From IMG/VR virus record IMGVR_UViG_2619619134_000015, positions 1-16,655 of that record: DNA of 16,655 nucleotides. One strand, 5' to 3'. The position numbers were made by a program, and so were the translations under genes. Each line of letters opens with the position of its first letter. Position 1 is the first letter of the stretch. This stretch comes from a virus. Taxonomy: Duplodnaviria > Heunggongvirae > Uroviricota > Caudoviricetes. Positions 1,315-16,655 of the stretch are shown one piece after another. The notes under the pieces were generated by a model that made no database searches, was not told the DNA's origin, and saw only the letters and a list, made by a program, of their open reading frames with translations.

Positions 1315-1369
1315 CGATACCTCCAGACGCCCAAGAGCGATACGAGCTTACATATTTCATGATATTAAA

Positions 1370-1606: not shown

Positions 1607-1614
1607 GTATTACC

Positions 1615-1761
1615 TCACACAACACTCAGCCCACGGCAGTGGCAACACACTTCAAACATTCGCTTCACAACTTCACGACAGTAGAAGCCGTCAACATCTC
1701 GCGTCAGGTCATAGCGATTGCCGTAACGCTGGTGGACCCATCGTTCAAATGCTTTATTCAT
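1615..1761 (-). CDS. Hypothetical small Cys-rich protein (48 aa; MNKAFERWVHQRYGNRYDLTRDVDGFYCREVVKRMFEVCCHCRGLSVV)
   Basis: Not in the supplied ORF track because it is under 60 aa. It has an ATG at 1759-1761 preceded by AAGGAAG at good spacing and packs tightly between the neighbouring genes. It contains a C..CCHC cluster. Confidence 0.4.
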   Translation of the reverse strand: MNKAFERWVHQRYGNRYDLTRDVDGFYCREVVKRMFEVCCHCRGLSVV

Positions 1762-1764
1762 TCT

Positions 1765-2007
1765 TTACTTCCTTTTTATGGCTCGTAATTTTTTCAGGTG
1801 CTTTTCCTGCTCAGTGTCCGCGAGAATTTTGCGGTACTCCTGGTGGTCAATATGTTCGAACAGGCAGTTTAACTCACCAATGCGTACCCGCCCGGATCGT
1901 CCGTCCATCCGTCGAAAGAACACTGAGTGCTCAGTGATGCGAGTAATCACCACGGGGTATCCGGCTCTGTCCGTGTATATCTGACCGCGTTGAATCAAAG
2001 CGAACAT
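1765..2007 (-). CDS. Hypothetical small prophage protein (80 aa from the first ATG; resembles small conserved proteins found near xis in enterobacterial prophages, possibly DUF4222-type)
   Basis: The ORF-track start at 2043 is a TTG. The first in-frame ATG is at 2005-2007, preceded by a GGGGA RBS. Family assignment is from memory and unverified. Confidence 0.5.
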   Translation of the reverse strand: MFALIQRGQIYTDRAGYPVVITRITEHSVFFRRMDGRSGRVRIGELNCLFEHIDHQEYRKILADTEQEKHLKKLRAIKRK

Positions 2008-2091
2008 GTGGTTATCCCCATCGACAAATCGAGAACACAACAAACGCTGCTGCGAATACCACCCCCAGAGTTACGATTGCATCAGGCCAGC

Positions 2092-3387: not shown

Positions 3388-3899
3388 GCCGCGTTTCCTT
3401 CTTTCTTATTAACAATCACACCGTCATATATTTCATTAAGGTGCCCTCTCAACTCCATGCGCCTTAATGCAGATAACATGTAATCGCATTCAACCTGCTT
3501 ATTCCCGGTAAATGGCTTATCGTCAGGATTACCCCAACAGCAATTACCCCTGGGCCATCCATGTACTTTCCGTACTCTTCCGTTAACAACGTGAAGTAAT
3601 CCCCAGCCGGGAGGTAAATCCTCAACTGAAATAATTTCCGGCTCACTAATAAAGAATCGCCAGTCGCCCATGCCAAGTGAGGGATTTTTACGGAAACGCT
3701 TTTTTCTATCTGCCAACAAGTCAGCACGAGAACACTTCGCCTCTATCAGGCATGATGCTGAATTTCTGAATCCCATAGCATCTGGCTGTTCTCCGGTACT
3801 GGTTACAGCAACAAAGCGGTCATGAAAGCAAACCTTGAACCCGTTGCGCTTAAGGAACTTGTACGCAATCTGACAGAGTTCGTGGTGTGTTAACGCCAT
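3384..3899 (-). CDS. Hypothetical protein (171 aa), possible PD-(D/E)XK nuclease-like fold
   Basis: Start chosen at the ATG at 3897-3899, preceded by AAGGAGAG; the ORF-track start at 3941 would overlap the upstream gene. The motif D..(n)..CLIEAKCSRADLL is reminiscent of a PD-(D/E)XK core. This is inference only. Confidence 0.55.
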   Translation of the reverse strand: MALTHHELCQIAYKFLKRNGFKVCFHDRFVAVTSTGEQPDAMGFRNSASCLIEAKCSRADLLADRKKRFRKNPSLGMGDWRFFISEPEIISVEDLPPGWGLLHVVNGRVRKVHGWPRGNCCWGNPDDKPFTGNKQVECDYMLSALRRMELRGHLNEIYDGVIVNKKEGNAA

Positions 3900-3900
3900 A

Positions 3901-4383
3901 TCACTCTCCTTTGATGCGAATGCCAGCGGCGCGGGAATCATTCCATCGCTTTACTTCTTCACGAATTACGTCAATGCATTCTTTCGAATCCATTAGGTAA
4001 TCTTCATCAAAAAGACGTTCCTGTTCGTTTTCTATCGCAACAATGATTGCTTCAACTAACTTTTGTTCCTGAGAATCACTTTCTAACTCTGCTATGCGCT
4101 TACTCCCATCCGAGATAACACCTTCGTAATATTCACGCTGTTCGTTGAGTTTTGATTTTGTCTCCTCAAGCTCAACGCGCAGCTTCCCTACCGTTAGCGC
4201 AATATCCTCGTTCTCCTGGTCGCGGCGTTTGATGTATTGCTGGTTTCTTTCCCGTTCATCCAGCAGTGCCAGCACAACCTGAGGTGTGACTTTCATACGA
4301 AATGCCAGCAATTTTTGAGGCGTTGCTACTGTTTCAATTGCTACTGCCGCCTCACGCAGTGCCTGAGAGTTAATTTCGCTCAC
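3901..4383 (-). CDS. Hypothetical coiled-coil protein (160 aa, E/K/R/Q-rich)
   Basis: GTG start at 4381-4383 preceded by GAGAGG, overlapping the stop of the upstream TraR-like gene (GTGA). Composition is strongly helical and charged. Function unknown. Confidence 0.55.
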   Translation of the reverse strand: MSEINSQALREAAVAIETVATPQKLLAFRMKVTPQVVLALLDERERNQQYIKRRDQENEDIALTVGKLRVELEETKSKLNEQREYYEGVISDGSKRIAELESDSQEQKLVEAIIVAIENEQERLFDEDYLMDSKECIDVIREEVKRWNDSRAAGIRIKGE

Positions 4384-4601
4384 TTCGAACCTCTCTGTTT
4401 ACTGATAAGTTCCAGATCCTCCTGGCAACTTGCACAAGTCCGACAACCCTGAACGGCCAAGCGTCTTCGTTCATCTATCGGATCGCCACACTCACAACAA
4501 TGAGTGGCAGATATAGCCTGGTGGTTCAGGCGGCGCATTTTTATTGCTGTGTTGCGCTGTAATTCTTCAATTTCTGATGCTGAATCAATGATGTCTGCCA
4601 T
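4380..4601 (-). CDS. TraR/DksA-family C4 zinc-finger protein (73 aa)
   Basis: The four-Cys pattern CCECGDPIDERRR...GCRTCASC is typical of phage and plasmid TraR/DksA C4-type zinc fingers. ATG at 4601. Confidence 0.75.
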   Translation of the reverse strand: MADIIDSASEIEELQRNTAIKMRRLNHQAISATHCCECGDPIDERRRLAVQGCRTCASCQEDLELISKQRGSK

Positions 4602-4650
4602 CTTTCATTAATCCCTGAATTGTTGGTTAATACGCTTGAGGGTGAATGCG

Positions 4651-4677
4651 AATAATAAAAAAGGAGCCTGTAGCTCC
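4651..4677 (-). terminator. Rho-independent terminator (leftward)
   Basis: On the minus strand, a GGAGC-TACAG-GCTCC hairpin is followed by TTTTTTATTATT. It lies between the 4700-4915 gene and the TraR-like gene. Confidence 0.55.
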
Positions 4678-4699
4678 CTGATGATTTTGCTTTTCATGT

Positions 4700-4915
4700 T
4701 CATCGCTCCTTAAAGACGCCGTTTAACATGCCGATCGCCAGGCTTAAATGAGTCGGTGTGAATCCCATCAGCGTTACCGTTTCGCGGTGCTTCTTCAGTA
4801 CGCTACGGCAAATGTCATCGACGTTTTTATCCGGAAACTGCTGTCTGGCTTTTTTGATTTCAGAATTAGCCTGACGGGCAATGCTGCGAAGGGCGTTTTC
4901 CTGCTGAGGTGTCAT
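4700..4915 (-). CDS. Hypothetical protein (71 aa from the ATG at 4915; the ORF also has an upstream ATG at 4981)
   Basis: ORF in the lambda orf61 position downstream of orf63. Start is uncertain because neither ATG has a strong RBS. Identity to lambda orf61 is not established. Confidence 0.45.
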   Translation of the reverse strand: MTPQQENALRSIARQANSEIKKARQQFPDKNVDDICRSVLKKHRETVTLMGFTPTHLSLAIGMLNGVFKER

Positions 4916-4991
4916 TGAACAAGTCCCATGTCGGCAAGCATAAGCACACAGAATATGAAGCCCGCTGCCAGAAAAATGCATTCAGTGGTTG

Positions 4992-5183
4992 TCATACCTG
5001 GTCTCTCTCATCTGCTTCTGCTTTCGCCACCATCATTTCCAGCTTTTGTGAAAGGGATGCGGCTAACGTATGAAATACTTCGTCTGTTTCTACTGGTATT
5101 GGCACAAACCTGACTCCAATTTGAGCGAGGCTATGTGCCATCTCGATACTCGTTCTTAACTCAACGGGAGATGCTTTGTGCAT
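4992..5183 (-). CDS. Lambda orf63-like protein (63 aa)
   Basis: Exactly 63 aa, with an ATG at 5183 preceded by GGGGAG. Position relative to exo matches the lambda order exo-orf60a-orf63. Identification is from gene order and size plus partial memory of the sequence. Confidence 0.55.
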   Translation of the reverse strand: MHKASPVELRTSIEMAHSLAQIGVRFVPIPVETDEVFHTLAASLSQKLEMMVAKAEADERDQV

Positions 5184-5338
5184 ACAGCTCCCCGTTTATT
5201 ATTTATCTCCTCAGCCAGCCGCTGTGCTTTCAGGGGATTTCGGATAACAGAAAGGCCGGGAAATACCCAGCCTCGCTTTGTAACGGAGTAGACGAAAGTG
5301 ATCGCGCCTACCCGGATATTATCGTGAGGATGCTTCAT
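5156..5338 (-). CDS. Lambda orf60a-like protein (60 aa)
   Basis: The ATG at 5336-5338 overlaps the exo stop (ATGA), giving a 60-aa product ([16 protein letters not shown]...). It is immediately downstream of exo, as in lambda. Confidence 0.55.
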
Positions 5339-6015
5339 CGCCATTGCTCCCCAAATACAAAACCAATTTCAGCCAGTGCCTCGTCCATTTTTTCGATGAA
5401 CTCCGGCACCATCTCGTCAAAACTCGCCATGTAATTTTCATCCCGCTCAACCACGACATAATGCAGGCCTTCACGCTTCATTCGTGGGTCATAGTTGGCA
5501 AAGTACCAGGCATCTTTTCGCGTCACCCACATGCTGTACTGCACCTGGGCCATGTAAGCTGACTTTATGGCCTCGAAACCACCGAGCCGGAATTTCATGA
5601 AATCCCGGGAGGTAAACGGGCATTTCAGTTCAAGGCCGTTGCCGTCACTGCATAAACCATCGGGAGAGCAGGCGGTGCGCATACTTTCGTCGCGATAGAT
5701 GATCGGGGATTCAGTAACATTCACGCCGGAAGTAAACTCAAACAGGGCTCTGGCGTCGTTCTCGTACTGTTTTCCCCAGGCCAGCGCCTTAGCATTAACT
5801 TCCGGAGCCACACCGGTGCAAACCTCAGCCAGCAGGGTGTGGAAGTAGGACATTTTCATGTCAGGCCACTTCTTTCCTGAGCGGGGCTTTGCTATCACGT
5901 TGTGAACTTCTGAAGCGGTGATGACGCCGAGCAGTAATTTGTGCCATGCATCATCCCCCTGTTCGACAGCTCTCACGTCGATCCCGGTACGCTGCAGGAT
6001 AATGTCCGGTGTCAT
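5335..6015 (-). CDS. exo: Lambda exonuclease (Red-alpha), 226 aa
   Basis: The protein ([43 protein letters not shown] ... FVFGEQWR) matches lambda Exo as remembered. Its start overlaps the bet stop. Confidence 0.95.
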
Positions 6016-6797
6016 GCTGCCACCTTCTGCTCAGTGGCTTTCTGTTTCAGGAATCCAAGAGCTTTCACTGCTTCGGCCTGTGTCAGTTCTGACGATGCGC
6101 GAATGTCGCGGCGAAATATCTGGGAACAGAGCGGCAATAAGTCGTCATCCCATGTTTTATCCAGGGCGATCAGCAGAGTGTTAATCTCCTGCATGGTTTC
6201 ATCGTTAACCGGAGTGATGTCGCGTTCCGGCTGACGTTCTGCAGTGTATGCAGTATTTTCGACAATGCGCTCGGCTTCATCCTTGTCATAGATACCAGCA
6301 AATCCGAAGGCCAGACGGGCACACTGAATCATGGCTTTATGCCGTAACATCCGTTTGGGATGCGACTGCCACGGTCCGGTGATTTCTCTGCCTTCGCGGG
6401 TTTTGAATGGTTCGCGGCGGCATTCATCCATCCACTCGGTAACGCAGATCGGATGATTACGGTCCTTGCGGTAAATCCGGCATGTACATGATTCATTGTC
6501 CTGCTCAAAGTCCATGCCATCAAACTGCTGGTTTTCATTGATGATACGGGACCAGCCATCAACGCCCACCACCGGAACGATGCCGTTCTGCTTGTCAGGG
6601 AAGGCGTAAATTTCTTTCGTCCACGGATTAAGGCCGTACTGGTTGGCGACGATCAACAATGCGATGAACTGCGCATCGCTGGCATCACCTTTAAATGCCG
6701 TCTGGCGAAGAGTGGTGATCAGTTCCTGTGGGTCGACAGAATCCATGCCGACACGTTCAGCCAGCTTCCCAGCCAGCGTTGCGAGTGCTGTACTCAT
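6012..6797 (-). CDS. bet: Lambda Bet single-strand annealing protein (Red-beta), 261 aa
   Basis: The protein ([66 protein letters not shown]...) matches lambda Bet as remembered. Confidence 0.95.
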
Positions 6798-6802
6798 CCG
6801 TT

Positions 6803-7219
6803 TTATACCTCTGAATCAATATCAACCTGGTGGTGAGCAATGGTTTCAACCATGTACCGGATGTGTTCTGCCATGCGCTCCTGAAACTCAACATCGTCAT
6901 CAAACGCACGGGTAATGGCTTTTTTGCTGGCCCCGTGGCGTTGCAAATGATCGATGCATAGCGATTCAAACAGGTGCTAGGGCAGGCTTTTTTCCATGTC
7001 GTCTGCCAGTTCTGCCTCTTTCTCTTCACGGGCGAGCTGCTGGTAGTGACGCGTCCAGCTCTGAGCCTCAAGACGATCCTGAATGTAATAAGCGTTCATG
7101 GCTGAACTCCTGAAATAGCTGTGAAAATATCGCCCGCGAAATGCCGGGCTGATTAGGAAAACAGGAAAGGGGGTTAGTGAATGCTTTTGCTTGATCTCAG
7201 TTTCAGTATTAATATCCAT
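6803..7219 (-). pseudogene. gam: gam (RecBCD inhibitor) interrupted by an in-frame amber codon
   Basis: The locus is 417 nt, equal to the 138-codon lambda gam. The N-terminal 80 codons ([50 protein letters not shown]...DDMEKSLP) end at a TAG at 6977-6979. Downstream, the same frame encodes [57 protein letters not shown], matching the lambda Gam C-terminus, then a TAA at 6803-6805. Confidence 0.85.
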
Positions 7220-7317
7220 TTTTTATAAGCGTCGACGGCCTCACGAAACATCTTTTCATCGCCAATAAAAGTGGCGATAGTGAATTTAGTCTGGATAGCC
7301 ATAAGTGTTTGATCCAT
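7174..7317 (-). CDS. kil: Kil, host cell-division inhibitor (47 aa)
   Basis: [47 protein letters not shown] matches lambda Kil as remembered. It overlaps the gam start and the cIII 3' end, as in lambda. The ORF-track N-terminal extension to 7443 is an artefact. Confidence 0.8.
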
Positions 7318-7450
7318 TTTTTGGGACTCCTGGCTGATTAAGTATGTCGATAAGGCGTTTCCATCCGTCACGTAATTTACGGGTGATTCGTTCAAGTAAA
7401 GATTCGGAAGGGCAGCCAGCAACAGGCCACCCTGCAATGGCATATTGCAT
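7286..7450 (-). CDS. cIII: CIII, FtsH/HflB inhibitor that stabilises CII (54 aa)
   Basis: The ATG at 7448-7450 begins MQYAIAGWPVAGCP..., the lambda CIII N-terminus. The ORF is 165 nt and is absent from the ORF track because it is under 60 aa. Confidence 0.8.
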   Translation of the reverse strand: MQYAIAGWPVAGCPSESLLERITRKLRDGWKRLIDILNQPGVPKNGSNTYGYPD

Positions 7451-7522
7451 GGTGTGCTCCTTATTTATACATAACGAAAAACGCCTCGAGTGAAGCGTTA
7501 TTGGTATGCGGTAACGCCGCGC

Positions 7523-7891
7523 TCAGGCGGCTTTGATAGTCATATCATCTGAATCAAATATTCCTGATGTATCGATATCGGTAATTCTTATTCCTTCGCT
7601 ACCATCCATTGGAGGCCATCCTTCCTGACCGTTTCCATCATTCCAGTCGAACTCACACACAACACCATATGCATTTAAGTCGCTTGAAATTGCTATAAGC
7701 AGAGCATGTTGCGCCAGCATGATTAATACAGCATTTAATACAGAGCCGTGTTTATTGAGTCGGTATTCAGAGTCTGACCAGAAATTATTAATCTGGTAAA
7801 GTTTTTCCTCTGTCATTACGTCATGGTCGATTTCAATTTCTATTGATGCTTTCCAGTCGTAATCAATGATGTATTTTTTGATGTTTGACAT
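7523..7891 (-). CDS. ea10: Ea10-like protein (122 aa)
   Basis: Its size and its position immediately upstream of cIII match lambda ea10. ATG at 7891. Confidence 0.7.
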   Translation of the reverse strand: MSNIKKYIIDYDWKASIEIEIDHDVMTEEKLYQINNFWSDSEYRLNKHGSVLNAVLIMLAQHALLIAISSDLNAYGVVCEFDWNDGNGQEGWPPMDGSEGIRITDIDTSGIFDSDDMTIKAA

Positions 7892-7910
7892 CTATTCATA
7901 TCCTCACAGA

Positions 7911-7937
7911 TAAAAAATCGCCCTCATACTGGAGGGC
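7911..7937 (-). terminator. Rho-independent terminator (leftward) between the accessory cassette and ea10
   Basis: On the minus strand, a GCCCTC-(6 nt)-GAGGGC hairpin (7920-7937) is followed by GATTTTTTAT. Confidence 0.5.
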
Positions 7938-8041
7938 AAAGAAGATTTCCAATAATCAGAACAAGTCGACTCCTGTTTAGTTACGAGCGACATTGCTCCG
8001 TGTATTCACTCGTTGGAATGAATACACAGTGCTTATTCGTA

Positions 8042-8512
8042 CTAATAAAACACCCAGTTTTCTGTTTCTTGGTTGTGTCCAAAGTTATATTCAATATCTG
8101 GTGTTGATGTATCAATATTCTTCATCCCATCAACAAGAGTTGATGCAACAGCCAAATCTTGTTTGATTCTCATTAAATGGTATTTCTTCCGGCGCAATAA
8201 ACTTTCAATGGCAAGTTTCTTCGTTGGGAATGCAAAAGATCTTTCTGCATTTTTTGCTACTTTCTTAATTGCATATCTATTTCTCTTTTGTTTCCATTCC
8301 TGTAACCACTGATTTGGTGCTGGTTTAAAATTAACAATCCAATGCGCAGGAACCAACCATGCATAATGCTCTGTCTGATGAAAAGCTATATATTGAAGTG
8401 CGAATATTTTGATTCCATCTTCTTCAACTGTCGCCTGGAATCTCCAGAAAACAGGCATTCCATCATGTTCAGTTTCTGATTCAGGAAAAGGTACGCTCCA
8501 TGATTTTGTCAT
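8042..8512 (-). CDS. Hypothetical protein (156 aa), accessory cassette gene A
   Basis: ATG at 8512 preceded by GAGGTGA. It lies in an AT-rich segment (judged by eye) in the position of lambda ral/sieB. No recognisable motifs. Confidence 0.6.
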   Translation of the reverse strand: MTKSWSVPFPESETEHDGMPVFWRFQATVEEDGIKIFALQYIAFHQTEHYAWLVPAHWIVNFKPAPNQWLQEWKQKRNRYAIKKVAKNAERSFAFPTKKLAIESLLRRKKYHLMRIKQDLAVASTLVDGMKNIDTSTPDIEYNFGHNQETENWVFY

Positions 8513-8569
8513 ATCTCACCTCAAATAATTCAGTGCAGTGTTTATTCTGTTGCTTATTCCAAAGCAAAT

Positions 8570-8812
8570 TTAACCAGCAACAAACTCTTCTGGTAATTTA
8601 TCAACCACTTGATGGCTTATTATCAGCCATTTGCCATCCTTCGTTCCGTATGCATATTTCTGGTCTTTTATCATCATGTGTTCAGCTACTGCCTTAACTG
8701 CCTGTTCGGTTACATCTTCTTTCTTTCCCACCCACATTCCTTTTTCAGTGTTTAATGTTCCTTGAAAAATACGACCACTTAATGGGCTTGCGCCCATAGT
8801 TTTGATTTTCAT
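8570..8812 (-). CDS. Hypothetical protein (80 aa; MKIKTMGASPLSGRIFQGT...), accessory cassette gene B
   Basis: Start chosen at the ATG at 8810-8812, preceded by GGAGA. The longer ORF-track start at 8875 has no RBS and would overlap gene C. Confidence 0.5.
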   Translation of the reverse strand: MKIKTMGASPLSGRIFQGTLNTEKGMWVGKKEDVTEQAVKAVAEHMMIKDQKYAYGTKDGKWLIISHQVVDKLPEEFVAG

Positions 8813-8820
8813 ATGTCTCC

Positions 8821-8848
8821 TTAAAAATAAAGGCCGATTATGCGGCCT
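8821..8848 (-). terminator. Hairpin plus T-run (leftward) between cassette genes C and B
   Basis: On the minus strand, an AGGCCG-cataat-CGGCCT hairpin (8831-8848) is followed by TTATTTTTAA, immediately before the gene B RBS. Confidence 0.45.
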
Positions 8849-8852
8849 GAAA

Positions 8853-9176
8853 TTAATTAACCAATGATGCTGCATATTCGATAAGGTAAAGCTTTGGGGC
8901 CAGCCAAATTTTTAACCAAGTCATATTGGTTACTGCACCAATAATAAAATCCCCCCACAGAGTCAAAACTCCAACCAATGGCACGATAAGAAGATTAATA
9001 TCACCTTTGCTATCCCAAACCATTGTCGGCCTGTATTTGGGATTTCCTTTCTCCCATGAATATCCTTCATCACCGATTTCACCTGTCTCAACTCTTTGGC
9101 ACTGCTTCTTCATAAACCAGAAAACCAGTGGGATTGTTAGAATGGCTATTAATGTTTTAATCAGACTGTCAACCAT
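8853..9176 (-). CDS. Small membrane protein (107 aa, two predicted TM helices), accessory cassette gene C
   Basis: Start at the ATG at 9174-9176 (the ORF-track start at 9191 is a TTG). Hydrophobic stretches LIKTLIAILTIPLVFWF and INLLIVPLVGVLTLWGDFIIGAV. RBS is weak. Confidence 0.5.
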   Translation of the reverse strand: MVDSLIKTLIAILTIPLVFWFMKKQCQRVETGEIGDEGYSWEKGNPKYRPTMVWDSKGDINLLIVPLVGVLTLWGDFIIGAVTNMTWLKIWLAPKLYLIEYAASLVN

Positions 9177-9442
9177 ATTCCATAGCAGCAACTGATGAAC
9201 AACATCAGGAATCTGTGCCTGGCTAAATGAAACAGCCGCGTCTATTCCATTGCTGGCTTTTTGCAGTAGTTCTACGAGAATCTTGTTTGCTTGTTCTTCC
9301 GTATATCACCTTAAATAGTGGATTGCGGTAGTAAAGATTGTGCCTGTCTTTTAACCACATCGGGCTCGGTGGTTCCTCCACTTTCCACAGTCAAAGGAAA
9401 TGGGTAGACTGTTGTTTCCACAGTCAAAAGAAGGGCTTTGTT

Positions 9443-9607
9443 ATGACAGATATTGTTAATCCCAAAACCAACCCACACGAAGCCGCTCAACAGATTATTG
9501 TTGAGCTTATCAGAGCCGGTAATCTTGCCCCTGGCATTGACGGAAAGCCAAGCACAGTTGTTTATGAAAAAATTCTTGATGAGATTATCAGAATAAACAG
9601 TAAGTAA
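9443..9607 (+). CDS. Hypothetical small protein (54 aa; MTDIVNPKTNPHEAAQQIIVELIRAGNLAPGIDGKPSTVVYEKILDEIIRINSK)
   Basis: First ATG of the 9338..9607 ORF, preceded by AAGAAGGG. It is the only rightward ORF in the left arm and is preceded by two 18-bp direct repeats. Confidence 0.35.
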   Translation: MTDIVNPKTNPHEAAQQIIVELIRAGNLAPGIDGKPSTVVYEKILDEIIRINSK

Positions 9608-9847
9608 TTAAGAGAACAAAATTTCGAATGCCTGGCGGATGGTTGCAACATCTTCGTTCGTCAGTTTTTTTCGTTCATCTGATGACATCGATAACAATGC
9701 ATTCCTCTCAATCAACGTAGCCAGCAGTTTAGATGCTATATTTTGAACGTCAGGGCTTAACTCTAAGAATTTATTTCGACTACGTTCGAGAATAAGTTGT
9801 GTCGCGGGTGTATCTTTTAACTCAGATATTTTTTTTGTCCAATACAT
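9608..9847 (-). CDS. Hypothetical protein (79 aa from the ATG at 9847) immediately downstream of N
   Basis: The ORF-track start at 9871 is a TTG; the first ATG is at 9845-9847 with a weak RBS. It is convergent with the 54-aa plus-strand ORF. Confidence 0.35.
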   Translation of the reverse strand: MYWTKKISELKDTPATQLILERSRNKFLELSPDVQNIASKLLATLIERNALLSMSSDERKKLTNEDVATIRQAFEILFS

Positions 9848-9904
9848 CAAGCATTTCTTTCGTTTTCTCAATTAGTAATTGTTCAATACATGAAATATCC
9901 ATAA

Positions 9905-10213
9905 TTACCTCGCCGTCAGTTGTTTTGATTTCCGATAGCCTGCCACGTAGATGGCTACGTTTGGCAGGCAAATGCTTCCATTGCATTCGTCGGTATTTTG
10001 GTTACGAATGTTGCCGAGTGATATTGCTTTTTCAGAAAGGCTTAAACGCTTTCTCGGTTCTTTCTGAACAGGTTCATCACTGTCTGTACCGAAGATCGAA
10101 TCGATGATGTTGCATATAGCATCACGCTCGATAGCCAGCTTTCTGCGCCGCTCATGACGGCGAGTTTTGGCATTTCCTGTAAATGTTGATTTCCCGTACA
10201 CGATTACCGTCAT
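9905..10213 (-). CDS. N: N-type transcription antiterminator (102 aa), P22 gp24-like
   Basis: Arginine-rich motif GNAKTRRHERRRKLAIERD near the N-terminus, matching my recollection of P22 gp24. It sits between the immunity region and the recombination genes. The nut sites have P22-type GACAA boxB loops. Confidence 0.8.
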   Translation of the reverse strand: MTVIVYGKSTFTGNAKTRRHERRRKLAIERDAICNIIDSIFGTDSDEPVQKEPRKRLSLSEKAISLGNIRNQNTDECNGSICLPNVAIYVAGYRKSKQLTAR

Positions 10214-10392
10214 GATGTTTTCCTCATGTAAAATGGCTTTGGTGGTGAGGTAGGTGGGAGACCCATTTCGACCTGTTTCGGCCTACTTCAATTCGGCAAT
10301 AGTCCCGCAGGCCTCGCCGCTTTACGTGCGACATATTCCCGTCCATGAACCCTTCACCACACCGCCAAACCCATCTCGTTTGGTATCTGTTT

Positions 10393-10426
10393 GCGCTTTG
10401 TCAGCGCCCCATCGAAGTTAAAGAGC
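10393..10426 (-). promoter_or_regulatory. nutL (boxA-like GCTCTTTAA plus boxB hairpin GCGCU-GACAA-AGCGC)
   Basis: Read on the minus strand: boxA-like GCTCTTTAA, a roughly 10-nt spacer, then a perfect 5-bp stem with a GACAA pentaloop. Confidence 0.55.
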
Positions 10427-10776
10427 CCGCCAATCTGTTCCGTTTGGCTTCCAACGTCCTGCTGATGGCGATAATAATGAACCAGTAGTTCGATATTATC
10501 AAGAACTATTGGTACGAATCGTTTATGATTTATTAACTCTACGAAATATGATTTTGATATATAAGGAAATTTATTTTTGTAAATGTTGCGGATGAAGGTT
10601 ATGCGGCAGGGATCAGAATTGCGTGGTTTAGCAAGTTGTATCTATTTATTTTTCAATAAATACAATTGGTTATGTGTTTTTAGATGGTGGATCGGGAGGC
10701 AAAGAAAACTGCTAGGTAGAAAACTGTGGGCACAAAAAAGCTAATGTGGAGTTGTTTGATCTTTTTAGGGGAATAA
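10427..10776 (-). promoter_or_regulatory. Presumed pL/OL region (promoter and operators not resolved)
   Basis: AT-rich non-coding segment between the terminator of the cI-linked module and nutL. Position only; no confident -35/-10 or operator assignment. Confidence 0.3.
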
Positions 10777-10803
10777 GAAAACCCGCCGAAGCGGGTGTTT
10801 TTG
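10777..10803. terminator. Bidirectional rho-independent terminator (AAAACCCGC-CGAA-GCGGGTGTTTTT)
   Basis: GC-rich 6-bp stem with a 4-nt loop flanked by an A-run on one side and a T-run on the other. It lies immediately after the stop of the 40-aa ORF, in the position of the lambda immunity-operon terminator. Confidence 0.7.
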
Positions 10804-10804
10804 G

Positions 10805-10927
10805 TTATGCTGCCATTGGAAGCTTTGATGCTAGCATTTCTGCTTTTCTCTGCTTCATTTCAGCAATAATCTGATTGATTCGATCCGCACTTTTAAGCAT
10901 ATCTTTGATATGTTCAGTTCTAGACAT
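10805..10927 (-). CDS. Hypothetical small protein (40 aa; MSRTEHIKDMLKSADRINQIIAEMKQRKAEMLASKLPMAA)
   Basis: Not in the ORF track because it is under 60 aa. ATG at 10925-10927 preceded by GGAGG at 6-nt spacing, 23 nt after the stop of the 120-aa gene. A TAA stop is followed directly by the terminator. Confidence 0.5.
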   Translation of the reverse strand: MSRTEHIKDMLKSADRINQIIAEMKQRKAEMLASKLPMAA

Positions 10928-10950
10928 GTTTATCCTCCGCTCTGTAAGTG

Positions 10951-11313
10951 TCAAAGACCCGATTTAGCACTCTTGAGTAGTTTTGATCCCTCAGAGCACA
11001 AATCAGGATTCTTTTCTCTTATGTTTTTGATTAAAATCTGTGCAAATATGATGATTTGCTTTAAGTTTAGTTCATTGATTGCATCAGCTTTTTGGTCAAG
11101 TTTCTCTAGCTCTGCATCTAATTCGTCAAGAGATGGGTTTGTTAACTCATGCAACCCTTCAATTCCAAGCTCTTCAAGACTGGTTGTAACAAATTCAATC
11201 AGACCGATTACAGCCTTTTTGACGCTATATATCTGCTTCTCCTCTGCGGAGGCCTCTGCACTTGGAACCAATGCTAAGGTTTTCAGATATTCATTCGTTT
11301 CATCTTGGGTCAC
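10951..11313 (-). CDS. Hypothetical acidic protein (120 aa) in the rexA/rexB position downstream of cI
   Basis: GTG start at 11311-11313 preceded by AAGGAG at 8-nt spacing. Same strand as cI and AT-rich. The overlapping plus-strand ORF 10910..11434 has antisense-like S/F-rich composition. Confidence 0.55.
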   Translation of the reverse strand: MTQDETNEYLKTLALVPSAEASAEEKQIYSVKKAVIGLIEFVTTSLEELGIEGLHELTNPSLDELDAELEKLDQKADAINELNLKQIIIFAQILIKNIREKNPDLCSEGSKLLKSAKSGL

Positions 11314-11479
11314 TAACTATACTCCTTATATATGCTCGATCAACCCATTTTGCAACCGCATTTACTGGGATAGAGCTTTTTTTACAATAGTCTTATGTGT
11401 ATATTTACAACGTTGTTTGTGGATAGGGTTATGATTTGTACCTAAAACCTGTCGCATTTTCGTCTCTATGCTATTGGTA

Positions 11480-12187
11480 TTAATAATTTCTCAGCCACTC
11501 CCTTGCCTCGATGTCATCCAGATGGCGAGATTGCTTCAGAATACCAGCCACATACTCCACCTTTGCTACTTGATGATAAGGCAACGTTATTGGTCTGTGG
11601 TCCTGGTTGATGCTTGTAAATTGGTATTCTCCATCTCTGTCATAGCCAAGAATCTTGATCATGTTGTGTCCTTCGATGGTTCTGACAAACACCTCATCAC
11701 CCGGGAATACTTTGGTGTTAGGCTCAATGAGTACATATTCTCCTGATTTTATTCTGGGCCACATGCTGTCTCCTTTCACACGAAGACCAAAGGCATCTGG
11801 ATCATCGCTATAAATCTTGAGCCACCCATCGCGTTCTTCGGTCATCTCGATGGCACCATCAACACCAAGAATTGCCTCACCAACCACGCGCACTAACCCT
11901 TTTTTTAATTTGCCAACAAATGAAAGAGTATCTTCATCATTCGCTCCATTTAACGAAGTGCCGTGCTGAAGCCAAACAACATCAACGTTTAGAAATTTCG
12001 CAAGCGCATTCATTTTTTCCTGACGCGGTAAAGACTCAGCATTAAACCATTTGCTAACGCCTTTGGACGAAAGAGAAAGGGCACGGGCTATAGCCATTCC
12101 CCTACCATGTTCATCAAGACCAGCTTCTTTACAGGCTTGCGCTAGCCGCTGGGCGAATTCTTTGCGCACTTTTTCATTCTGAACCAT
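11480..12187 (-). CDS. cI: CI-type prophage repressor (235 aa), HTH N-terminal domain plus LexA/S24-like self-cleaving C-terminal domain
   Basis: N-terminal HTH region (GMAIARALSLSSKGVSKWFNAE) and a C-terminal domain with the Ser (GDSMWP) and downstream Lys typical of the S24 peptidase fold. It is divergent from cro. It is not the lambda cI sequence. Confidence 0.85.
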   Translation of the reverse strand: MVQNEKVRKEFAQRLAQACKEAGLDEHGRGMAIARALSLSSKGVSKWFNAESLPRQEKMNALAKFLNVDVVWLQHGTSLNGANDEDTLSFVGKLKKGLVRVVGEAILGVDGAIEMTEERDGWLKIYSDDPDAFGLRVKGDSMWPRIKSGEYVLIEPNTKVFPGDEVFVRTIEGHNMIKILGYDRDGEYQFTSINQDHRPITLPYHQVAKVEYVAGILKQSRHLDDIEAREWLRNY

Positions 12188-12265
12188 GAGTACGATACTA
12201 AAGCACTTGCAAAAACTTTCAGTTCAATCATAATGCGTACTGAAAGTACGAAAAAGGATATTCCT
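12188..12265. promoter_or_regulatory. OR/pR/pRM region between cI and cro
   Basis: Candidate pR: -35 TTGCAA (12207-12212) and -10 CATAAT (12229-12234) at 16-nt spacing. A perfect palindrome CGTACtgaaaGTACG (12235-12249) and inverted 9-mers ACTTTCAGT/ACTGAAAGT are candidate operator elements. Confidence 0.45.
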
Positions 12266-12493
12266 ATGCAAAATCTTGATGAGCCGATTAAAGGTGTCGG
12301 CATACCTGAAGTTGCGAAGGCTTGTGGAGTTAGCGAAAGGGCTGTCTATAAGTGGCTCAAAAACGGCTTCCTCCCTAAGACTGAGTTTTTTGGGAAAACG
12401 AAATACGCCTCAAAAATCGAAGAGATTTCTGGTGGCAAATATCAAGCAAGCGAAATGCTTGAAATAAGTAAAAAGAACCTTCTGGCTGCATAA
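12266..12493 (+). CDS. cro: Cro-type repressor (75 aa)
   Basis: ATG at 12266 preceded by AAGGA. HTH motif AKACGVSERAVYKWLKNG. It is divergent from cI and followed by nutR. Confidence 0.7.
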   Translation: MQNLDEPIKGVGIPEVAKACGVSERAVYKWLKNGFLPKTEFFGKTKYASKIEEISGGKYQASEMLEISKKNLLAA

Positions 12494-12500
12494 GTAACAC

Positions 12501-12535
12501 CGCTCTTTATCAATCTGCACCGCCGACAACGCGGT
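12501..12535 (+). promoter_or_regulatory. nutR (boxA CGCTCTTTA plus boxB-like hairpin with GACAA loop)
   Basis: CGCTCTTTA at 12501-12509, then ACCGCCGACAACGCGGT at 12519-12535. A hairpin/T-rich stretch (cactcatcgaaagatgagtattagtgattattt) follows and is a possible tR1. Confidence 0.55.
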
Positions 12536-12599
12536 AACTAATTAAGCACTCATCGAAAGATGAGTATTAGTGATTATTTACCTATGGAAATAGTAAGAA

Positions 12600-12896
12600 A
12601 TGGAAAGAACAAGTTACAGCAAACTATCACAGCGTGACGTTGATCGCGCAGAAACAGATTTACTTATCAATCTGTCAGCTATTACCCAGCGCGGTCTGGC
12701 AAAGATGATTGGCTGTCATGAATCGAAGATAAGCAGAACGGACTGGCGGTTTATTGCTTCGGTCCTGTGTGCTTTCGGAATGGCATCAGACATCAGTCCG
12801 ATTAGCAGGGCTTTTAAGTATGCGCTTGATGAAATCATCAATAAAAAACGCCCGGCGGCAACCGAGCGTTCTGAACAAATCCAGATGGAATTCTGA
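12600..12896 (+). CDS. cII: CII transcriptional activator (98 aa), chimeric: divergent N-terminal part, lambda-identical C-terminus
   Basis: The C-terminus NKKRPAATERSEQIQMEF is identical to lambda CII. The N-terminal 80 residues are homologous in pattern but divergent. Confidence 0.8.
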   Translation: MERTSYSKLSQRDVDRAETDLLINLSAITQRGLAKMIGCHESKISRTDWRFIASVLCAFGMASDISPISRAFKYALDEIINKKRPAATERSEQIQMEF

Positions 12897-12917
12897 GATC
12901 ATTACTGGATCAATCCA
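12842..12917 (-). ncRNA. oop: OOP antisense RNA with its terminator
   Basis: On the minus strand, the 3' end reads GTTGCCGCCGGGCGTTTTTTAT, the characteristic lambda oop terminator. The body is antisense to the cII 3' end. The 5' end is estimated by lambda homology (GGATTGATCCAGTAATGA...). Confidence 0.6.
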
Positions 12918-12928
12918 CAGGAGTCATT

Positions 12929-13867
12929 ATGACAAATACAGCAAAAATACTCAACTTCTGCAGAGGTAACTTTGCCAAACAGGAGCGTAATGTGGCAGAT
13001 CTCGATGATGGTTACGCCAGACTATCAAATATGCTGATTGAGGCTTATTCAGGCGCAGATCTGACCAAGCGACAGTTTAAAGTGCTGCTTGCCATTCTGC
13101 GTAAAACCTATGGGTGGAATAAACCAATGGACAGAATCACCGATTCTCAACTTAGCGAGATTACAAAGTTACCTGTCAAACGGTGCAATGAAGCCAAGTT
13201 AGAACTCGTCAGAATGAATATTATCAAGCAGCAAGGCGGCATGTTTGGACCAAATAAAAACATCTCAGAATGGTGCATCCCTCAAAACGAGGGAGGTTCC
13301 CCTAAAATGAGGGACATCCCTCAAAACGAGGGAAAATCCCCTAAAACGAGGGATAAAACATCCCTCAAATTAGGGGATTGCTATCCCTCAAAACAGGGGG
13401 ACACAAAAGACACTATTACAAAAGAAAAAAGAAAAGATTATTCGTCCGAGAATTCTGGCGAATCCTCTGACCAGCCAGAAAACGATCTTTCTGTGGTTAA
13501 ACCGGATGCTGCAATTCAGAGCGGCAGCAAGTGGGGAACAGCAGAAGACCTGACCGCCGCAGAGTGGATGTTTGACATGGTGAAGACCATCGCACCATCA
13601 GCCAGAAAACCGAATTTTGCAGGGTGGGCTAACGATATCCGCCTGATGCGTGAACGTGACGGACGTAACCACCGCGACATGTGCGTGCTGTTCCGCTGGG
13701 CATGCCAGGACAACTTCTGGTCCGGTAACGTGCTAAGTCCGGCCAAACTCCGCGACAAGTGGACCCAGCTCGAAATCAACCGTAACAAGCAACAGGCTGG
13801 CGTGACAGCTGGAAAACCAAAACTCGACCTGACAAACACTGACTGGATTTACGGGGTGGATTTATGA
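12929..13867 (+). CDS. O: Replication initiator O (312 aa)
   Basis: MTNTAKILNF...TDWIYGVDL matches lambda O as remembered, except for a 13-aa insertion (GGSPKMRDIPQNE) that corresponds to two extra ori iterons. Confidence 0.95.
   Translation: MTNTAKILNFCRGNFAKQERNVADLDDGYARLSNMLIEAYSGADLTKRQFKVLLAILRKTYGWNKPMDRITDSQLSEITKLPVKRCNEAKLELVRMNIIKQQGGMFGPNKNISEWCIPQNEGGSPKMRDIPQNEGKSPKTRDKTSLKLGDCYPSKQGDTKDTITKEKRKDYSSENSGESSDQPENDLSVVKPDAAIQSGSKWGTAEDLTAAEWMFDMVKTIAPSARKPNFAGWANDIRLMRERDGRNHRDMCVLFRWACQDNFWSGNVLSPAKLRDKWTQLEINRNKQQAGVTAGKPKLDLTNTDWIYGVDL
13278..13401. repeat. ori-lambda-type iteron array within O: six roughly 18-bp iterons (TCCCTCAAAACGAGGGA-like) at about 20-bp periodicity
   Basis: Iterons at approximately 13278, 13298, 13317, 13337, 13361 and 13384, followed by an A-rich region (acaaaagacactattacaaaagaaaaaagaaaag). 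Confidence 0.85.
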
Positions 13868-14565
13868 AAAACATCGCCGCACAGATGGTTAACTTTGACC
13901 GTGAGCAGATGCGTCGGATCGCCAACAACATGCCGGAACAGTACGACGAAAAGCCGCAGGTACAACAGGTAGCGCAGATCATCAACGGTGTGTTCAGCCA
14001 GTTACTGGCAACTTTCCCGGCGAGTCTGGCTAACCGGGACCAGAACGAACTGAATGAAATCCGCCGCCAGTGGGTTCTGGCTTTCCGGGAAAACGGGATC
14101 ACCTCGATGGAACAGGTTAACGCAGGAATGCGCGTAGCCCGTCGGCAGAATCGACCATTTCTTCCATCACCCGGGCAGTTTGTTGCATGGTGCCGGGAAG
14201 AAGCATCCGTTATCGCCGGACTGCCAAACGTCAGCGAGCTGGTTGATATGGTTTACGAGTATTGCCGGAAGCGAGGCCTGTATCCGGATGCAGAGTCTTA
14301 TCCGTGGAAATCGAACGCGCACTACTGGCTGGTTACCAACCTGTACCAGAACATGCGGGCCAATGCGCTGACTGACGCGGAATTACGACGCAAGGCTGCC
14401 GATGAACTGACCTGTATGACAGCGCGAATTAACCGTGGTGAGACGATACCTGAACCAGTAAAACAACTTCCTGTCATGGGCGGCAGACCTCTAAATCGTG
14501 TTCAGGCGCTGGCGAAGATCGCAGAAATTAAAGCTAAGTTCGGACTGAAAGGAGCAAGTGTATGA
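13864..14565 (+). CDS. P: Replication protein P (DnaB helicase loader), 233 aa
   Basis: MKNIAAQMVNFDREQMRRIANNMPEQYDEKPQVQQVAQIINGVFSQLLATFPAS... matches lambda P as remembered. Its start overlaps the O stop (ATGA). Confidence 0.95.
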   Translation: MKNIAAQMVNFDREQMRRIANNMPEQYDEKPQVQQVAQIINGVFSQLLATFPASLANRDQNELNEIRRQWVLAFRENGITSMEQVNAGMRVARRQNRPFLPSPGQFVAWCREEASVIAGLPNVSELVDMVYEYCRKRGLYPDAESYPWKSNAHYWLVTNLYQNMRANALTDAELRRKAADELTCMTARINRGETIPEPVKQLPVMGGRPLNRVQALAKIAEIKAKFGLKGASV

Positions 14566-14852
14566 CGGGCAAAGAGGCAATTATTCATTACCTGGGGACG
14601 CATAATAGCTTCTGTGCGCCGGACGTTGCCGCGCTAACAGGCGCAACAGTAACCAGCATAAATCAGGCTGCGGCTAAAATGGCGCGGGCAGGAATCCTGG
14701 TCATTGATGGTAAGGTCTGGCGAACGGTGTATTACCGGTTTGCTACCAGGGAAGAACGGGAAGGAAAGGTGAGCACGAACCTGATTTTTAAGGAGTGTCG
14801 CCAGAGTGCAGCGATGAAACGGGTATTGGCGGTATATGGAGTTAAAAGATGA
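14562..14852 (+). CDS. ren: Ren (96 aa)
   Basis: MTGKEAIIHYLGTHNSFCAPDVAALTGATVTSINQAAAKMARAGILVIDGKVWRT... matches lambda Ren as remembered. Confidence 0.9.
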   Translation: MTGKEAIIHYLGTHNSFCAPDVAALTGATVTSINQAAAKMARAGILVIDGKVWRTVYYRFATREEREGKVSTNLIFKECRQSAAMKRVLAVYGVKR

Positions 14853-14876
14853 CCATCTACATCACTGAGCTAATAA

Positions 14877-14907
14877 CAGGCCTGCTGGTAATCGCAGGCC
14901 TTTTTAT
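14877..14907 (+). terminator. Rho-independent terminator (tR2-like)
   Basis: AGGCCTGC-tggtaatc-GCAGGCCT hairpin followed by TTTTTATTT, just downstream of ren. Confidence 0.6.
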
Positions 14908-14922
14908 TTGGGGGAGAGGGAA

Positions 14923-15240
14923 GTGAACGATAGCTACCGACAGTTTGAAAACTGGTGGTCAAAAGACAAAAGCCAGTTCACGGGAGACGATGAATTAAAA
15001 GAGTTTGCCTGGGTGATATGGCAGGCATCGCGCTCTGCTATTGAACTGGATATCGACTGGCCCGAATCGAATGACGACTTTTGGAAAGATGGTGAAGAAG
15101 GTGCTTATGCGATGGGTTATGAGGATGGGAGAGACAAAACGGTAATTGCAGTAATGAAAGCTATCAGATCCGCTGGAATTAAAGAGAAGAATTTCGATGA
15201 AGCAAATATACATGCTTCGCAACGAAGCAATCAGAAATAA
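14923..15240 (+). CDS. Hypothetical acidic protein (about 105 aa)
   Basis: GTG start at 14923 preceded by GGGAGAGGG; the ORF-track start at 14908 is a TTG inside the terminator T-run. Its 3' end overlaps the ninB start by about 44 nt in another frame. Confidence 0.45.
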   Translation: MNDSYRQFENWWSKDKSQFTGDDELKEFAWVIWQASRSAIELDIDWPESNDDFWKDGEEGAYAMGYEDGRDKTVIAVMKAIRSAGIKEKNFDEANIHASQRSNQK

Positions 15241-15643
15241 CGCCATAGACGCAATACTCTCACTTCCCATCGACGACAAGTCACCCCACGAAGTCCACCT
15301 TAAAGAACCCAAACGCAGCAAAGCGCAGAATGACCGTATGTGGCCGATGCTGAACGATGTTTCGCGTCAGGTGCTATGGCATGGTCAACGGCTGGCACCG
15401 GAAGACTGGAAAGACCTGTTCACTGCCCTGTGGCTTAAGACCAAAAAACTGGAGCAACGAAGTGTTCCTGGTATCGACGGTGGCGTTGTCATGCTTGGCG
15501 TGCGTACCAGCAAAATGCGAAAGGCCAGCATGACTGAGCTTATCGAAATCATGTTCTGGTTCGGCTCAGAGCGCAACGTGCGGTGGAGTGATGACTCCCG
15601 GCGAGAGTATGAATGGTCACAACGAAAAGGGAAGGCTGCATGA
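15197..15643 (+). CDS. ninB: NinB-like recombination protein (148 aa)
   Basis: Clear but diverged similarity to lambda NinB (QNDRMWPMLNDVSRQVLWHGQRL..., VRWSD..., C-terminal GKAA). Start could be the ATG at 15197 or at 15212. Confidence 0.8.
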   Translation: MKQIYMLRNEAIRNNAIDAILSLPIDDKSPHEVHLKEPKRSKAQNDRMWPMLNDVSRQVLWHGQRLAPEDWKDLFTALWLKTKKLEQRSVPGIDGGVVMLGVRTSKMRKASMTELIEIMFWFGSERNVRWSDDSRREYEWSQRKGKAA

Positions 15644-16167
15644 CTATCAAATCAAATACACCAGCGTCAGATAGGTATCGGCTTATTGAGGATTATCTGT
15701 ATTTAGACGGAGATACAGTCAGATACAAAAAGGACTCGCTAAAACACCCCAACCACAGCCACCGGGCCGGAGATGAAATTAAAACATCGATAAATGGATC
15801 TGGGTATAGACAGGTGTGTTTTGCAGGCATTCAGATGTTTGTTCACGTAGTTGTTTTTGCGCTGCACAACAAAAGAATGCCATTGAAAAATATTGACCAT
15901 ATTAACGGAAACAGGCTGGACAATTCCCCAAAAAATCTTAGGGAGGCAAACCGGATAGCAAACAGCCGAAATCAGAAAACTAAGTGCAATAGCCGTTCTG
16001 GAATAAAAAATGTTTTATGGAACAAGCAAAAAAATAAATGGGCCGTTCAAGTGCGCACAGATTTTGGCCGGTTGCATTTTGGGTTCTATGAAGATCTTGA
16101 GCTTGCTGGTTTGGTTGCCAGTGAGGCTATCAACAAATATCACGGACAATATGCGAGGGTTGAATGA
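15640..16167 (+). CDS. HNH homing-type endonuclease with a C-terminal AP2-like DNA-binding domain (175 aa)
   Basis: HNH core (HNKRMPLKNIDHINGNRLDNSPKNLREANRIANSRN) followed by a segment typical of AP2-like domains in phage HNH endonucleases (SGIKNVLWNKQKNKWAVQV...FGFYEDLELA). Its ATG overlaps the ninB stop (ATGA) and its stop overlaps the next gene start (ATGA). Confidence 0.75.
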   Translation: MTIKSNTPASDRYRLIEDYLYLDGDTVRYKKDSLKHPNHSHRAGDEIKTSINGSGYRQVCFAGIQMFVHVVVFALHNKRMPLKNIDHINGNRLDNSPKNLREANRIANSRNQKTKCNSRSGIKNVLWNKQKNKWAVQVRTDFGRLHFGFYEDLELAGLVASEAINKYHGQYARVE

Positions 16168-16655
16168 TTAAGCATAAATCAGAAACACCAAAAGAAGTTA
16201 GAGACTGCTGGCAAACGCCGCTTTGGCTTTTTGATGCACTGGATATTGAGTTTGGATTCTGGCTGGATTCAGCTGCGAGCGACAAAAACGCTCTGTGCGC
16301 TCACTGGCTAACTGAGGTCGACGACGCGCTCAATTCTGAGTGGGTAAGCCACGGTGCAATCTGGAATAACCCACCGTACAGCAATATCAGGCCGTGGGTG
16401 GAAAAAGCCGCTGAGCAGTGCATACAACAGCGACAGACGGTAGTTATGCTTGTGCCAGAGGATATGTCAGTCGGATGGTTCAGCAAGGCTCTGGAGAGTG
16501 TCGACGAAGTTCGCATTATCACTGATGGACGGATTAATTTTATCGAACCATCGACGGGGCTGGAGAAGAAGGGAAACAGCAAAGGCTCCATGCTGCTGAT
16601 TTGGCGACCGTTCATCAGTCCTCGACGGATGTTTACTACCGTATCCAAAGCGGCA
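16164..16655 (+). CDS. Phage N6-adenine DNA methyltransferase (Dam-like), 3'-truncated by the window end
   Basis: Open frame from the ATG at 16164 to the window end (164 codons). It carries the motif IV NPPY (IWNNPPYSNIRPWV) and sits in the nin region where lambdoid phages commonly carry such an enzyme. It is absent from the ORF track because no stop lies within the window. Confidence 0.8.
   Translation, partial: MIKHKSETPKEVRDCWQTPLWLFDALDIEFGFWLDSAASDKNALCAHWLTEVDDALNSEWVSHGAIWNNPPYSNIRPWVEKAAEQCIQQRQTVVMLVPEDMSVGWFSKALESVDEVRIITDGRINFIEPSTGLEKKGNSKGSMLLIWRPFISPRRMFTTVSKAA

Follow-up and report, generated by a model that had tools for sequence, protein, structure and literature searches.

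A candidate HNH-AP2 homing endonuclease gene at the 5' end of dam in the nin region of a lambdoid prophage

Free-standing homing endonuclease genes (HEGs) of the T4 type (SegF, SegG and MobE) and the MobE-split nrdA of phage Aeh1 lie between genes or close to one, home without an intron and co-convert flanking polymorphisms; the allele lacking the HEG is cut near the insertion point, and an adjacent polymorphism in the target is presumed to be protective. These genes encode GIY-YIG or other HNH enzymes, belong to lytic phages and usually carry their own expression signals, unlike the gene described here, which lies in a 16,655-nt stretch of a lambdoid prophage (IMG/VR record IMGVR_UViG_2619619134_000015, positions 1–16,655; in the following the window). 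In the window a 175-codon gene for an HNH-AP2 protein stands between ninB and a Dam-family methyltransferase gene (dam) and, judged from its junctions, uses the translation start of its presumed target gene, dam, to which it donates a substitute start.

The IPA-HNH HEGs of ICP1-like vibriophages (Barth et al. 2023, PMC10448857) resemble the gene in having an N-terminal I-HmuI-like HNH and a C-terminal AP2 domain and in being small free-standing phage genes of sporadic occurrence at a genetic-exchange boundary; HEGs sit at such boundaries according to the same paper, in which Magnani, Sjolander & Hake (2004, Plant Cell 16:2265) are cited for the HNH-AP2 combination as one of homing endonucleases. 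Unlike these, the ninB/dam element is found in the nin region of a temperate lambdoid prophage, has nine codons from the start of its presumed target joined in frame to its own ORF (open reading frame) and belongs to a lineage without a characterised member. The best structural and profile match, over residues ~27–110 and with identical D-H...N...N spacing, is I-HmuI, the HNH nicking enzyme of Bacillus phage SPO1 (PDB 1u3e), but the gene for I-HmuI lies within a group I intron and the C-terminal DNA-binding region of that enzyme is a helix-turn-helix, while here there is no intron and the C-terminus is AP2. Gene 31 of Salmonella phage epsilon34 (PMC2629481), also lambdoid (P22-like), has an eaE-like N-terminus, that of the neighbouring gene, fused in frame to a putative HNH homing endonuclease; it differs in lying in the early-left operon, in its HNH lineage and in that no replacement 5' end is described for the interrupted gene. 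The hidden HNH of the "ShiLan domain" (PMC11855218) is likewise embedded in a methylase ORF, of an actinophage, without destroying it, but there the methylase frame continues through the element and the HNH occupies a different frame, whereas at ninB/dam the two proteins come from separate ORFs, one after the other, and the methylase is given a new head, not expanded.

Precedents accordingly exist for in-frame fusion, for a methylase-embedded HNH and for HEGs at exchange boundaries, and the ninB/dam element by its architecture belongs to a known family and, going by its distribution, acts as a free-standing homing gene. No paper describing it was found in the literature. With a probability of roughly two in three, we read it as a free-standing, intron-less HEG of the HNH(I-HmuI-like)-AP2 kind whose home would be the 5' end of lambdoid dam; the nuclease activity and the target of the protein are what we infer from sequence comparison.

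The element and its junctions inside dam

Three consecutive genes on the + strand, ninB, the HNH ORF and dam, are joined by ATGA overlaps. The features of the locus are as follows, with type A denoting the empty allele and type B the dam 5' end that accompanies the element.

15640–16167, + strand: HNH-AP2 endonuclease ORF, 175 codons, intact (Pfam HNH_3; PHROG 99, 1.6e-42)
15640–15665, + strand: start codon and next codons (MTIKSNTPA) of an ancestral type A dam, captured as the opening 26 nt of the HNH ORF (26/26 nt shared with the 5' end of dam in 933W)
15666–16202, + strand: true inserted segment, 537 nt in place of the 10 nt ACACGACAAG, net +527 nt (junction comparison with the empty type A allele)
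15838–15969, + strand: HNH (beta-beta-alpha-Me) nuclease motif, amino acids (aa) 67–110, with H69, D86, H87, N99 and N108
15997–16152, + strand: AP2-like DNA-binding domain, three strands and a helix, ~aa 120–171
16155–16159, + strand: GAGGG, a Shine-Dalgarno-like motif in the 3' end of the HNH gene, presumably serving dam (by sequence; kept in the deletion alleles L007, L008 and L006)
16164–16202, + strand: type B patch, a substitute dam 5' end of 39 nt, ATG and 12 recoded codons (MIKHKSETPKEVR), which travels with the element
16203–16655, + strand: dam body (phage N-6-adenine methyltransferase) of ordinary type A sequence, running past the window end (Pfam Dam, 1.5e-63; TIGR01712, 3.8e-76)
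15197–15643, + strand: ninB, Orf-family recombination mediator and upstream neighbour of the HNH gene (Pfam NinB, 4e-48)

Both ATGA overlaps named in the original prediction, which was made from the sequence alone, are exact. In the left one (15640–15643) the ninB stop TGA occupies 15641–15643 and the HNH ATG 15640–15642, and in the right one (16164–16167) the HNH stop TGA occupies 16165–16167 and the dam ATG 16164–16166. An alternative in-frame ATG of the HNH ORF is found upstream at 15613; the start at 15640 is the one common to all alleles, including one with GTG.

The junctions were placed by lining up the window with phage 933W and 80 other type A loci. The type A allele reads ninB...GGGCTGC-ATGA-CTATCAAATCAAATAC(A/G)CCAGC-ACACGACAAG-GACTGCTGG and gives the Dam N-terminus MTIKSNTPAHDKDCW, while the window allele reads ninB...GGCTGC-ATGA-CTATCAAATCAAATACACCAGC, followed by the insert (GTCAGATAGG...HNH...GCGAGGGTTGA-ATGA-TTAAGCATAAATCAGAAACACCAAAAGAAGTTAGA) and then by GACTGCTGG. 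The boundaries of the insert fall inside the dam ORF, after dam nt 26 and before GACTGCTGG at dam codon 13/14, and dam 3' of GACTGCTGG is ordinary type A sequence. This agrees with a megablast alignment spanning 932 nt against a 1459-nt query, that is with the 527-nt length difference; the ninB and dam flanks have ~97.6% DNA identity to 933W-type phage records. The last 48 nt of the insert hold the GAGGG motif, the new dam start overlapping the HNH stop and the 13-codon recoded dam head. The two dam 5' ends are still similar within the window, forming a repeat (D2, 15649–15663 and 16176–16190, 527 nt apart), and the alignment score at the junction was equalled by 10 of 2000 shuffles.

From this comparison the left ATGA is the ancestral ninB/dam overlap and the right ATGA arrived with the element, neither being an insertion junction; the HNH ORF has taken over the ribosome-binding site, start codon and first nine codons of dam, and the element gives dam a new 5' end. 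As far as the sequence can be read, the insertion leaves the operon without a gap, promoter or terminator. The tight insertion between ninB and the methyltransferase gene had been taken as a sign of a mobile homing event, and a mobile insertion is indeed supported by the empty sites and by at least four upstream backgrounds (see below), but its junctions lie inside the dam ORF and not at the ATGA overlaps.

The reverse order, with type A as a deletion derivative of the filled allele, was considered and rejected, as the 10-nt junction sequence is missing from the filled allele and the type A N-terminus shows codon-by-codon homology with those of other Dam proteins.

The HNH gene had also been described as AT-richer than its neighbours, and this holds locally, the G+C content being 0.408 in the insert, 0.517 in ninB and 0.519 in the dam body; the window mean is 0.460 and 17% of its 537-nt segments are equally low, so the dip is a local contrast only and unexceptional for the window as a whole. 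Annotation of the dam start is inconsistent: in the filled alleles and in some of the deletion (scar) alleles RefSeq/PGAP uses an ATT one codon past the ATG (window 16164–16169; L002, 3125–3130, and other RefSeq loci), so that the end of HNH and the start of dam have the same coordinate, while the 933W annotation uses the ATG in the ATGA overlap. It is a practical point that annotation pipelines vary in where they place this start.

Architecture of the HNH-AP2 protein

When run as a single sequence against Pfam, the HNH protein matched HNH_3 (2.2e-10, aa 67–110) and gave no match to AP2 even at E<=10, and phmmer with the single protein against PDB gave no match. Since AP2 is undetected by Pfam in the single sequence, the domain is established by profile and structure. 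In a family profile built from 43 homologues the N-terminal two-thirds match I-HmuI (1u3e, E = 6e-8) and the C-terminal third matches plant AP2 domains, WRI1 (E = 1.4e-5) and TEM1. H69, D86, H87, N99 and N108 align with H56, D74, H75, N87 and N96 of I-HmuI with identical spacing, and all seven family-invariant residues are present in the window copy, which looks intact in sequence; its sole peculiar residue is N104, which is S in the other alleles and N in 10 of the 43 family members. In the predicted structure residues 1–5 have a pLDDT (predicted local distance difference test) below 50, the captured leader being modelled as disordered, and homology to the HNH family starts at about residue 12. 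Both hallmarks of the HNH-AP2 family were found, namely the beta-beta-alpha-Me motif with catalytic Asp-His, a structural Asn and a metal-binding Asn, and the C-terminal AP2 domain, and by this architecture the protein is an HNH-AP2 of the homing-endonuclease type, as it had been classified at first sight.

Some phage HNH proteins assist terminase in packaging, as in the HK97 gp74 type, or degrade host DNA in general (discussed in PMC11855218), and the same could be proposed here. The architecture of HNH_3/I-HmuI plus AP2 is, though, typical of site-specific homing enzymes; the gene is not placed by terminase in the manner of HK97 gp74 but in the early-right nin region by replication and recombination genes, and it is dispensable in nearly all relatives, which together make such a role most improbable.

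Empty sites, filled sites and diverged relatives

Comparison with related lambdoid genomes, suggested beforehand as a check for an empty site, showed ninB and dam directly adjacent (ninB-ATGA-dam) in 284 phage records, among them 933W, BP-4795, mEp213, vB_SosS_Oslo and many Shiga-toxin (Stx) phages, with both flanks ~97–98% identical to the window. In complete Escherichia coli genomes (n = 5426) the empty junction was found in 1458 and the HNH gene in 34, and IMG/VR prophage contigs gave 16 further filled loci. Presence and absence are thus polymorphic at one defined site among close relatives, and the junctions are identical in 21 of 21 filled loci. None of 50,697 phage genome records had a relative of the HNH protein with more than 60% identity; in sequenced phages the top matches near full length were <=38% identical and those over partial alignments at most ~46%, and the GTDB species representatives contained no close relative, only a 38% partial match. 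A nearly identical HNH protein is also on record from Escherichia albertii and Salmonella enterica.

The closest diverged relative (77% identical) comes from a 5-kb contig of a metagenome, on which its gene immediately precedes one of the Dam family and overlaps it by ATGA. Its upstream neighbour is a DUF1367 gene and its dam is highly divergent, beginning with the type B-like sequence MIKHKSQTPIESRDCW, from which it follows that the type B 5' end is native to the source lineage of the element. The N-terminus of the 77% relative, MTDKSEQ..., again resembles a Dam N-terminus, and there are hints in these sequences that capture of the dam leader predates the cluster of 98–100% identical genes. 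Relatives at 35–40% identity occur elsewhere: upstream of ninG in the Stx1 phage AU6Stx1, beside the holin gene in Jersey-like Salmonella phages and in multiple copies in T5-like phages. In AU6Stx1 (NC_049921, 18711–19316; L011, 2402–3007) the 38%-identical relative overlaps ninG from immediately upstream, a different nin-region site. That each HNH lineage has its own site is the pattern of homing endonucleases and not that of a nuclease-methylase partnership.

Such a partnership, in the form of restriction-modification, exclusion or the killing of competitors, would have the HNH protein attack DNA lacking Dam modification and Dam protect its own DNA, and cooperation with, or countering by, the adjacent methyltransferase had been raised in the original prediction. 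What speaks for it is that the HNH gene is always beside dam, both in the 98–100% cluster and in the 77% relative, but this conserved adjacency is better explained if dam is the homing site. The idea otherwise found no support: dam stands without HNH in the 1458 genomes and 284 phage records, contrary to the co-inheritance of a type II restriction-modification system; the HNH copies decay while dam stays intact; the 35–40% relatives adjoin holin, ninG or other genes and not methylases; and no GATC is present in the 45-nt type A junction stretch that is the presumed target. In PADLOC the best match of dam was an orphan methyltransferase (2.1e-20), with HNH weakly matched as HEase (0.002). We regard a nuclease-methylase pair as very unlikely.

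Spread, decay and a proposed route of homing

Among 18 filled loci the mean pairwise identity is 99.1% for HNH and 98.2% for dam, compared to 51% for the upstream 440 nt and 71% for the downstream 900 nt. The same HNH gene (98–100% identical) is found behind at least four unrelated upstream sequences, comprising two families of ninB alleles, one further variant and a gene other than ninB, the stop of which overlaps a GTG start (GTGA). Within the 26-nt leader, single-nucleotide polymorphisms (SNPs; ACA/ACG at nt 21 and CCA/CCG at nt 24) are those of type A dam alleles behind the same ninB alleles, and recipient-type sequence is kept to within 3–6 nt of the left heterology boundary. Recipient SNPs this near to the boundary are predicted by break-initiated repair and not by random crossovers. 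In the dam body, patch-bearing alleles (n = 23) are interspersed with type A haplotypes (n = 81, a sample biased towards 933W-like dam), the nearest type A being 1–8 differences away and the most distant patch-bearing allele up to 17, and this scatter indicates no linkage past the patch. Co-conversion fits both the 39-nt patch, which always accompanies the gene, and the recipient SNPs up to the left boundary, but dam recombines freely. The HNH-bearing alleles form no clade on the dam body, which is too recombinant to separate homing from ordinary recombination.

The type B patch was found only with the HNH gene or its deletion derivatives, both in the E. coli genomes, where it is present in 42 of 5426 (50 places; 34 with HNH, 8 with deletion derivatives), and in IMG/VR, where a scan for exact matches gave 18 loci, 14 filled and 4 deleted. 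Five of the eight E. coli derivatives have a ninB ending in ...GGGAGGGTTGA, which fits a deletion between GAGGG repeats, two have an in-frame internal deletion between two CTATCAA repeats that leaves a 14-codon mini-ORF, and in one ninB is fused to the final 30-odd nt of HNH. The four from IMG/VR are one of the GAGGG type, two of the fusion type and one deleted exactly between two ATGA motifs. From their sequences the four scar forms are read as independent losses of HNH that left the patch behind. The opposite polarity, with patch-bearing empty alleles as ancestral, was rejected, since it offers no explanation for the 26 nt of type A identity at the start of HNH and since each junction has a short direct repeat, as deletions predict; for the clean ATGA allele (L128) alone, an ancestral state rather than a deletion is an alternative. 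At offsets +125 to +141 past GACTGCTGG in the dam body (window ~16328–16344) there are variants, e.g. A at +141, seen in 6 of 23 patch-bearing alleles and in 0 of the 81 type A alleles sampled, and these may be what is left of co-conversion tracts that were longer and came from the donor lineage.

Fifteen of the 21 filled loci encode an intact 175-aa protein, one a protein of 174 aa, and five are disrupted, by the same A-run frameshift twice, by a premature stop and by IS100 twice. The frameshift, at window ~16003–16012 (GGAATAAAAAATG), is common to two independent loci (L009 and L025); the A-run resembles a hot spot of slippage, by which the nuclease is separated from the AP2 domain, and several database proteins (P0002, P0005 and P0006) are truncations similar to it. 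IS100 (IS21 family) lies in the 5' part of the HNH gene and parts it from ninB (L005, 633–2434, E. coli 503440, NZ_CP025881; and L026), and what remains of the gene in these alleles is also frameshifted. Gain, decay and loss are therefore all represented, by the filled loci, by 5 of 21 disrupted copies including the IS100 insertion, and by four kinds of deletion allele (ATGA, GAGGG, CTATCAA and one further junction). Of the codons that vary among the intact copies, 12 alter the amino acid and 5 are synonymous only, and against the 77% relative the ratio of non-synonymous to synonymous substitution rates (dN/dS) of HNH is 0.095. This pattern in the codons is one of long-term selection for function with recent relaxation, as expected of a homing gene.

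Several observations weigh against homing and fit better with a passive mosaic cassette, an inactive or no longer homing relic that entered dam once by illegitimate recombination and was then shuffled by ordinary homologous recombination in the ninB 3' end and the dam flanks. Only ~2.5% of ninB-dam junctions are filled, a rarity unlike that of a strongly driving element, and the gene is absent from sequenced phage records. In polylysogens type A sites persist beside filled ones (one genome has five junctions, two of them filled). With 41 informative sites dam is strongly reticulate, so ordinary homologous exchange in the conserved flanks, frequent anyway, could also move the cassette; both sharp junctions may stem from a single ancestral event, and the leader SNPs may be third-codon-position homoplasies. 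To this can be added that ~25% of the copies are disrupted and that the recent substitutions look near-neutral. A relic is hard to reconcile, on the other side, with a dN/dS of 0.095 and intact catalytic residues, which indicate selection for a working protein until recently, with the dam adjacency kept in the 77% relative despite an unrelated upstream gene and a divergent dam, and with the recipient-type SNPs kept so close to the boundary. We consider the passive cassette unlikely, and prefer the homing endonuclease gene.

The window comprises a lambdoid prophage's left half, in which integrase, exo/bet homologues, a cI-like repressor, cII, O, P and ren precede the nin region. Compared by sequence, this mosaic has no match as such among complete E. 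coli genomes, none in the collection covering more than 63% of it (best ~96% identity, O157:H7-type prophages). One further feature separates ren from the nin region:

14878–14901, + strand: strong terminator-like hairpin and T-run, AGGCCTGC...GCAGGCCT then TTTTATTT

This hairpin presumably occupies the position of a lambda tR2-type terminator. Next to it a 110-codon ORF with a TTG start (14908–15240, + strand) overlaps the ninB start and matched no Pfam or NCBIfam family; 933W and its relatives have a Lar-like restriction-alleviation gene or DUF7301 in its place.

A promoter scan showed no promoter-like site from 14800 to the window end, and no Rfam intron family was found at E<=1 in 14800–16655; the HNH ORF ends at its own stop and dam begins at its own start, so the gene is not embedded in an intron or intein. 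With neither promoter-like site nor intron-like RNA, expression of HNH and dam must, going by general lambda biology, come from the read-through early-right transcript and translational coupling.

For the homing endonuclease gene the following route is proposed. The nuclease would be translated from the ribosome-binding site and start of dam, coupled to ninB by the ancestral ATGA, and made in lytic growth, when the antiterminated transcript from pR carries it along with the nin region. It would nick or cut the HNH-less type A dam of another phage infecting the same cell, or of another prophage residing there, at or near codons 9–13 of dam, the predicted position being inside or beside ACGCCAGCACACGACAAGGACTGCTGG. 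The break would be repaired from the HNH-bearing genome, with the 26-nt dam 5' end and ninB as left arm and the dam body as right arm, whereby the nuclease gene is copied together with the recoded patch, which probably makes the HNH-bearing allele uncuttable. Later decay of the copies, or their deletion between short repeats, would give the patch-bearing empty sites.

More tentatively, and at somewhat less than even odds in our estimate, the element may have a "head-swap" lifestyle inside a coding sequence, entering dam in frame, borrowing its ribosome-binding site, start and coupling to ninB, and re-heading it with a recoded 5' end that would be the determinant of immunity to cleavage; the immune patch would then mark former carriers after deletion of HNH. 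If the 26-nt dam leader is also an obligatory left homology arm, both expression signals and recombination arm would be borrowed target sequence.

The gene is routinely annotated as "HNH endonuclease" and its family is known; the contribution of the comparison is a natural series of alleles, virgin, filled, decayed and with four kinds of scar. By this series the probable homing site is narrowed to ~40 nt in the first part of a gene that is very widespread in prophages, which provides a directly testable substrate for an uncharacterised HNH-AP2 enzyme. The locus is also a clean example of a selfish gene inside a translationally coupled operon at no polar cost, and in lambdoid prophages, those of the Shiga-toxin type among them, the presence of such HNH genes may indicate a boundary of exchange in the nin region.

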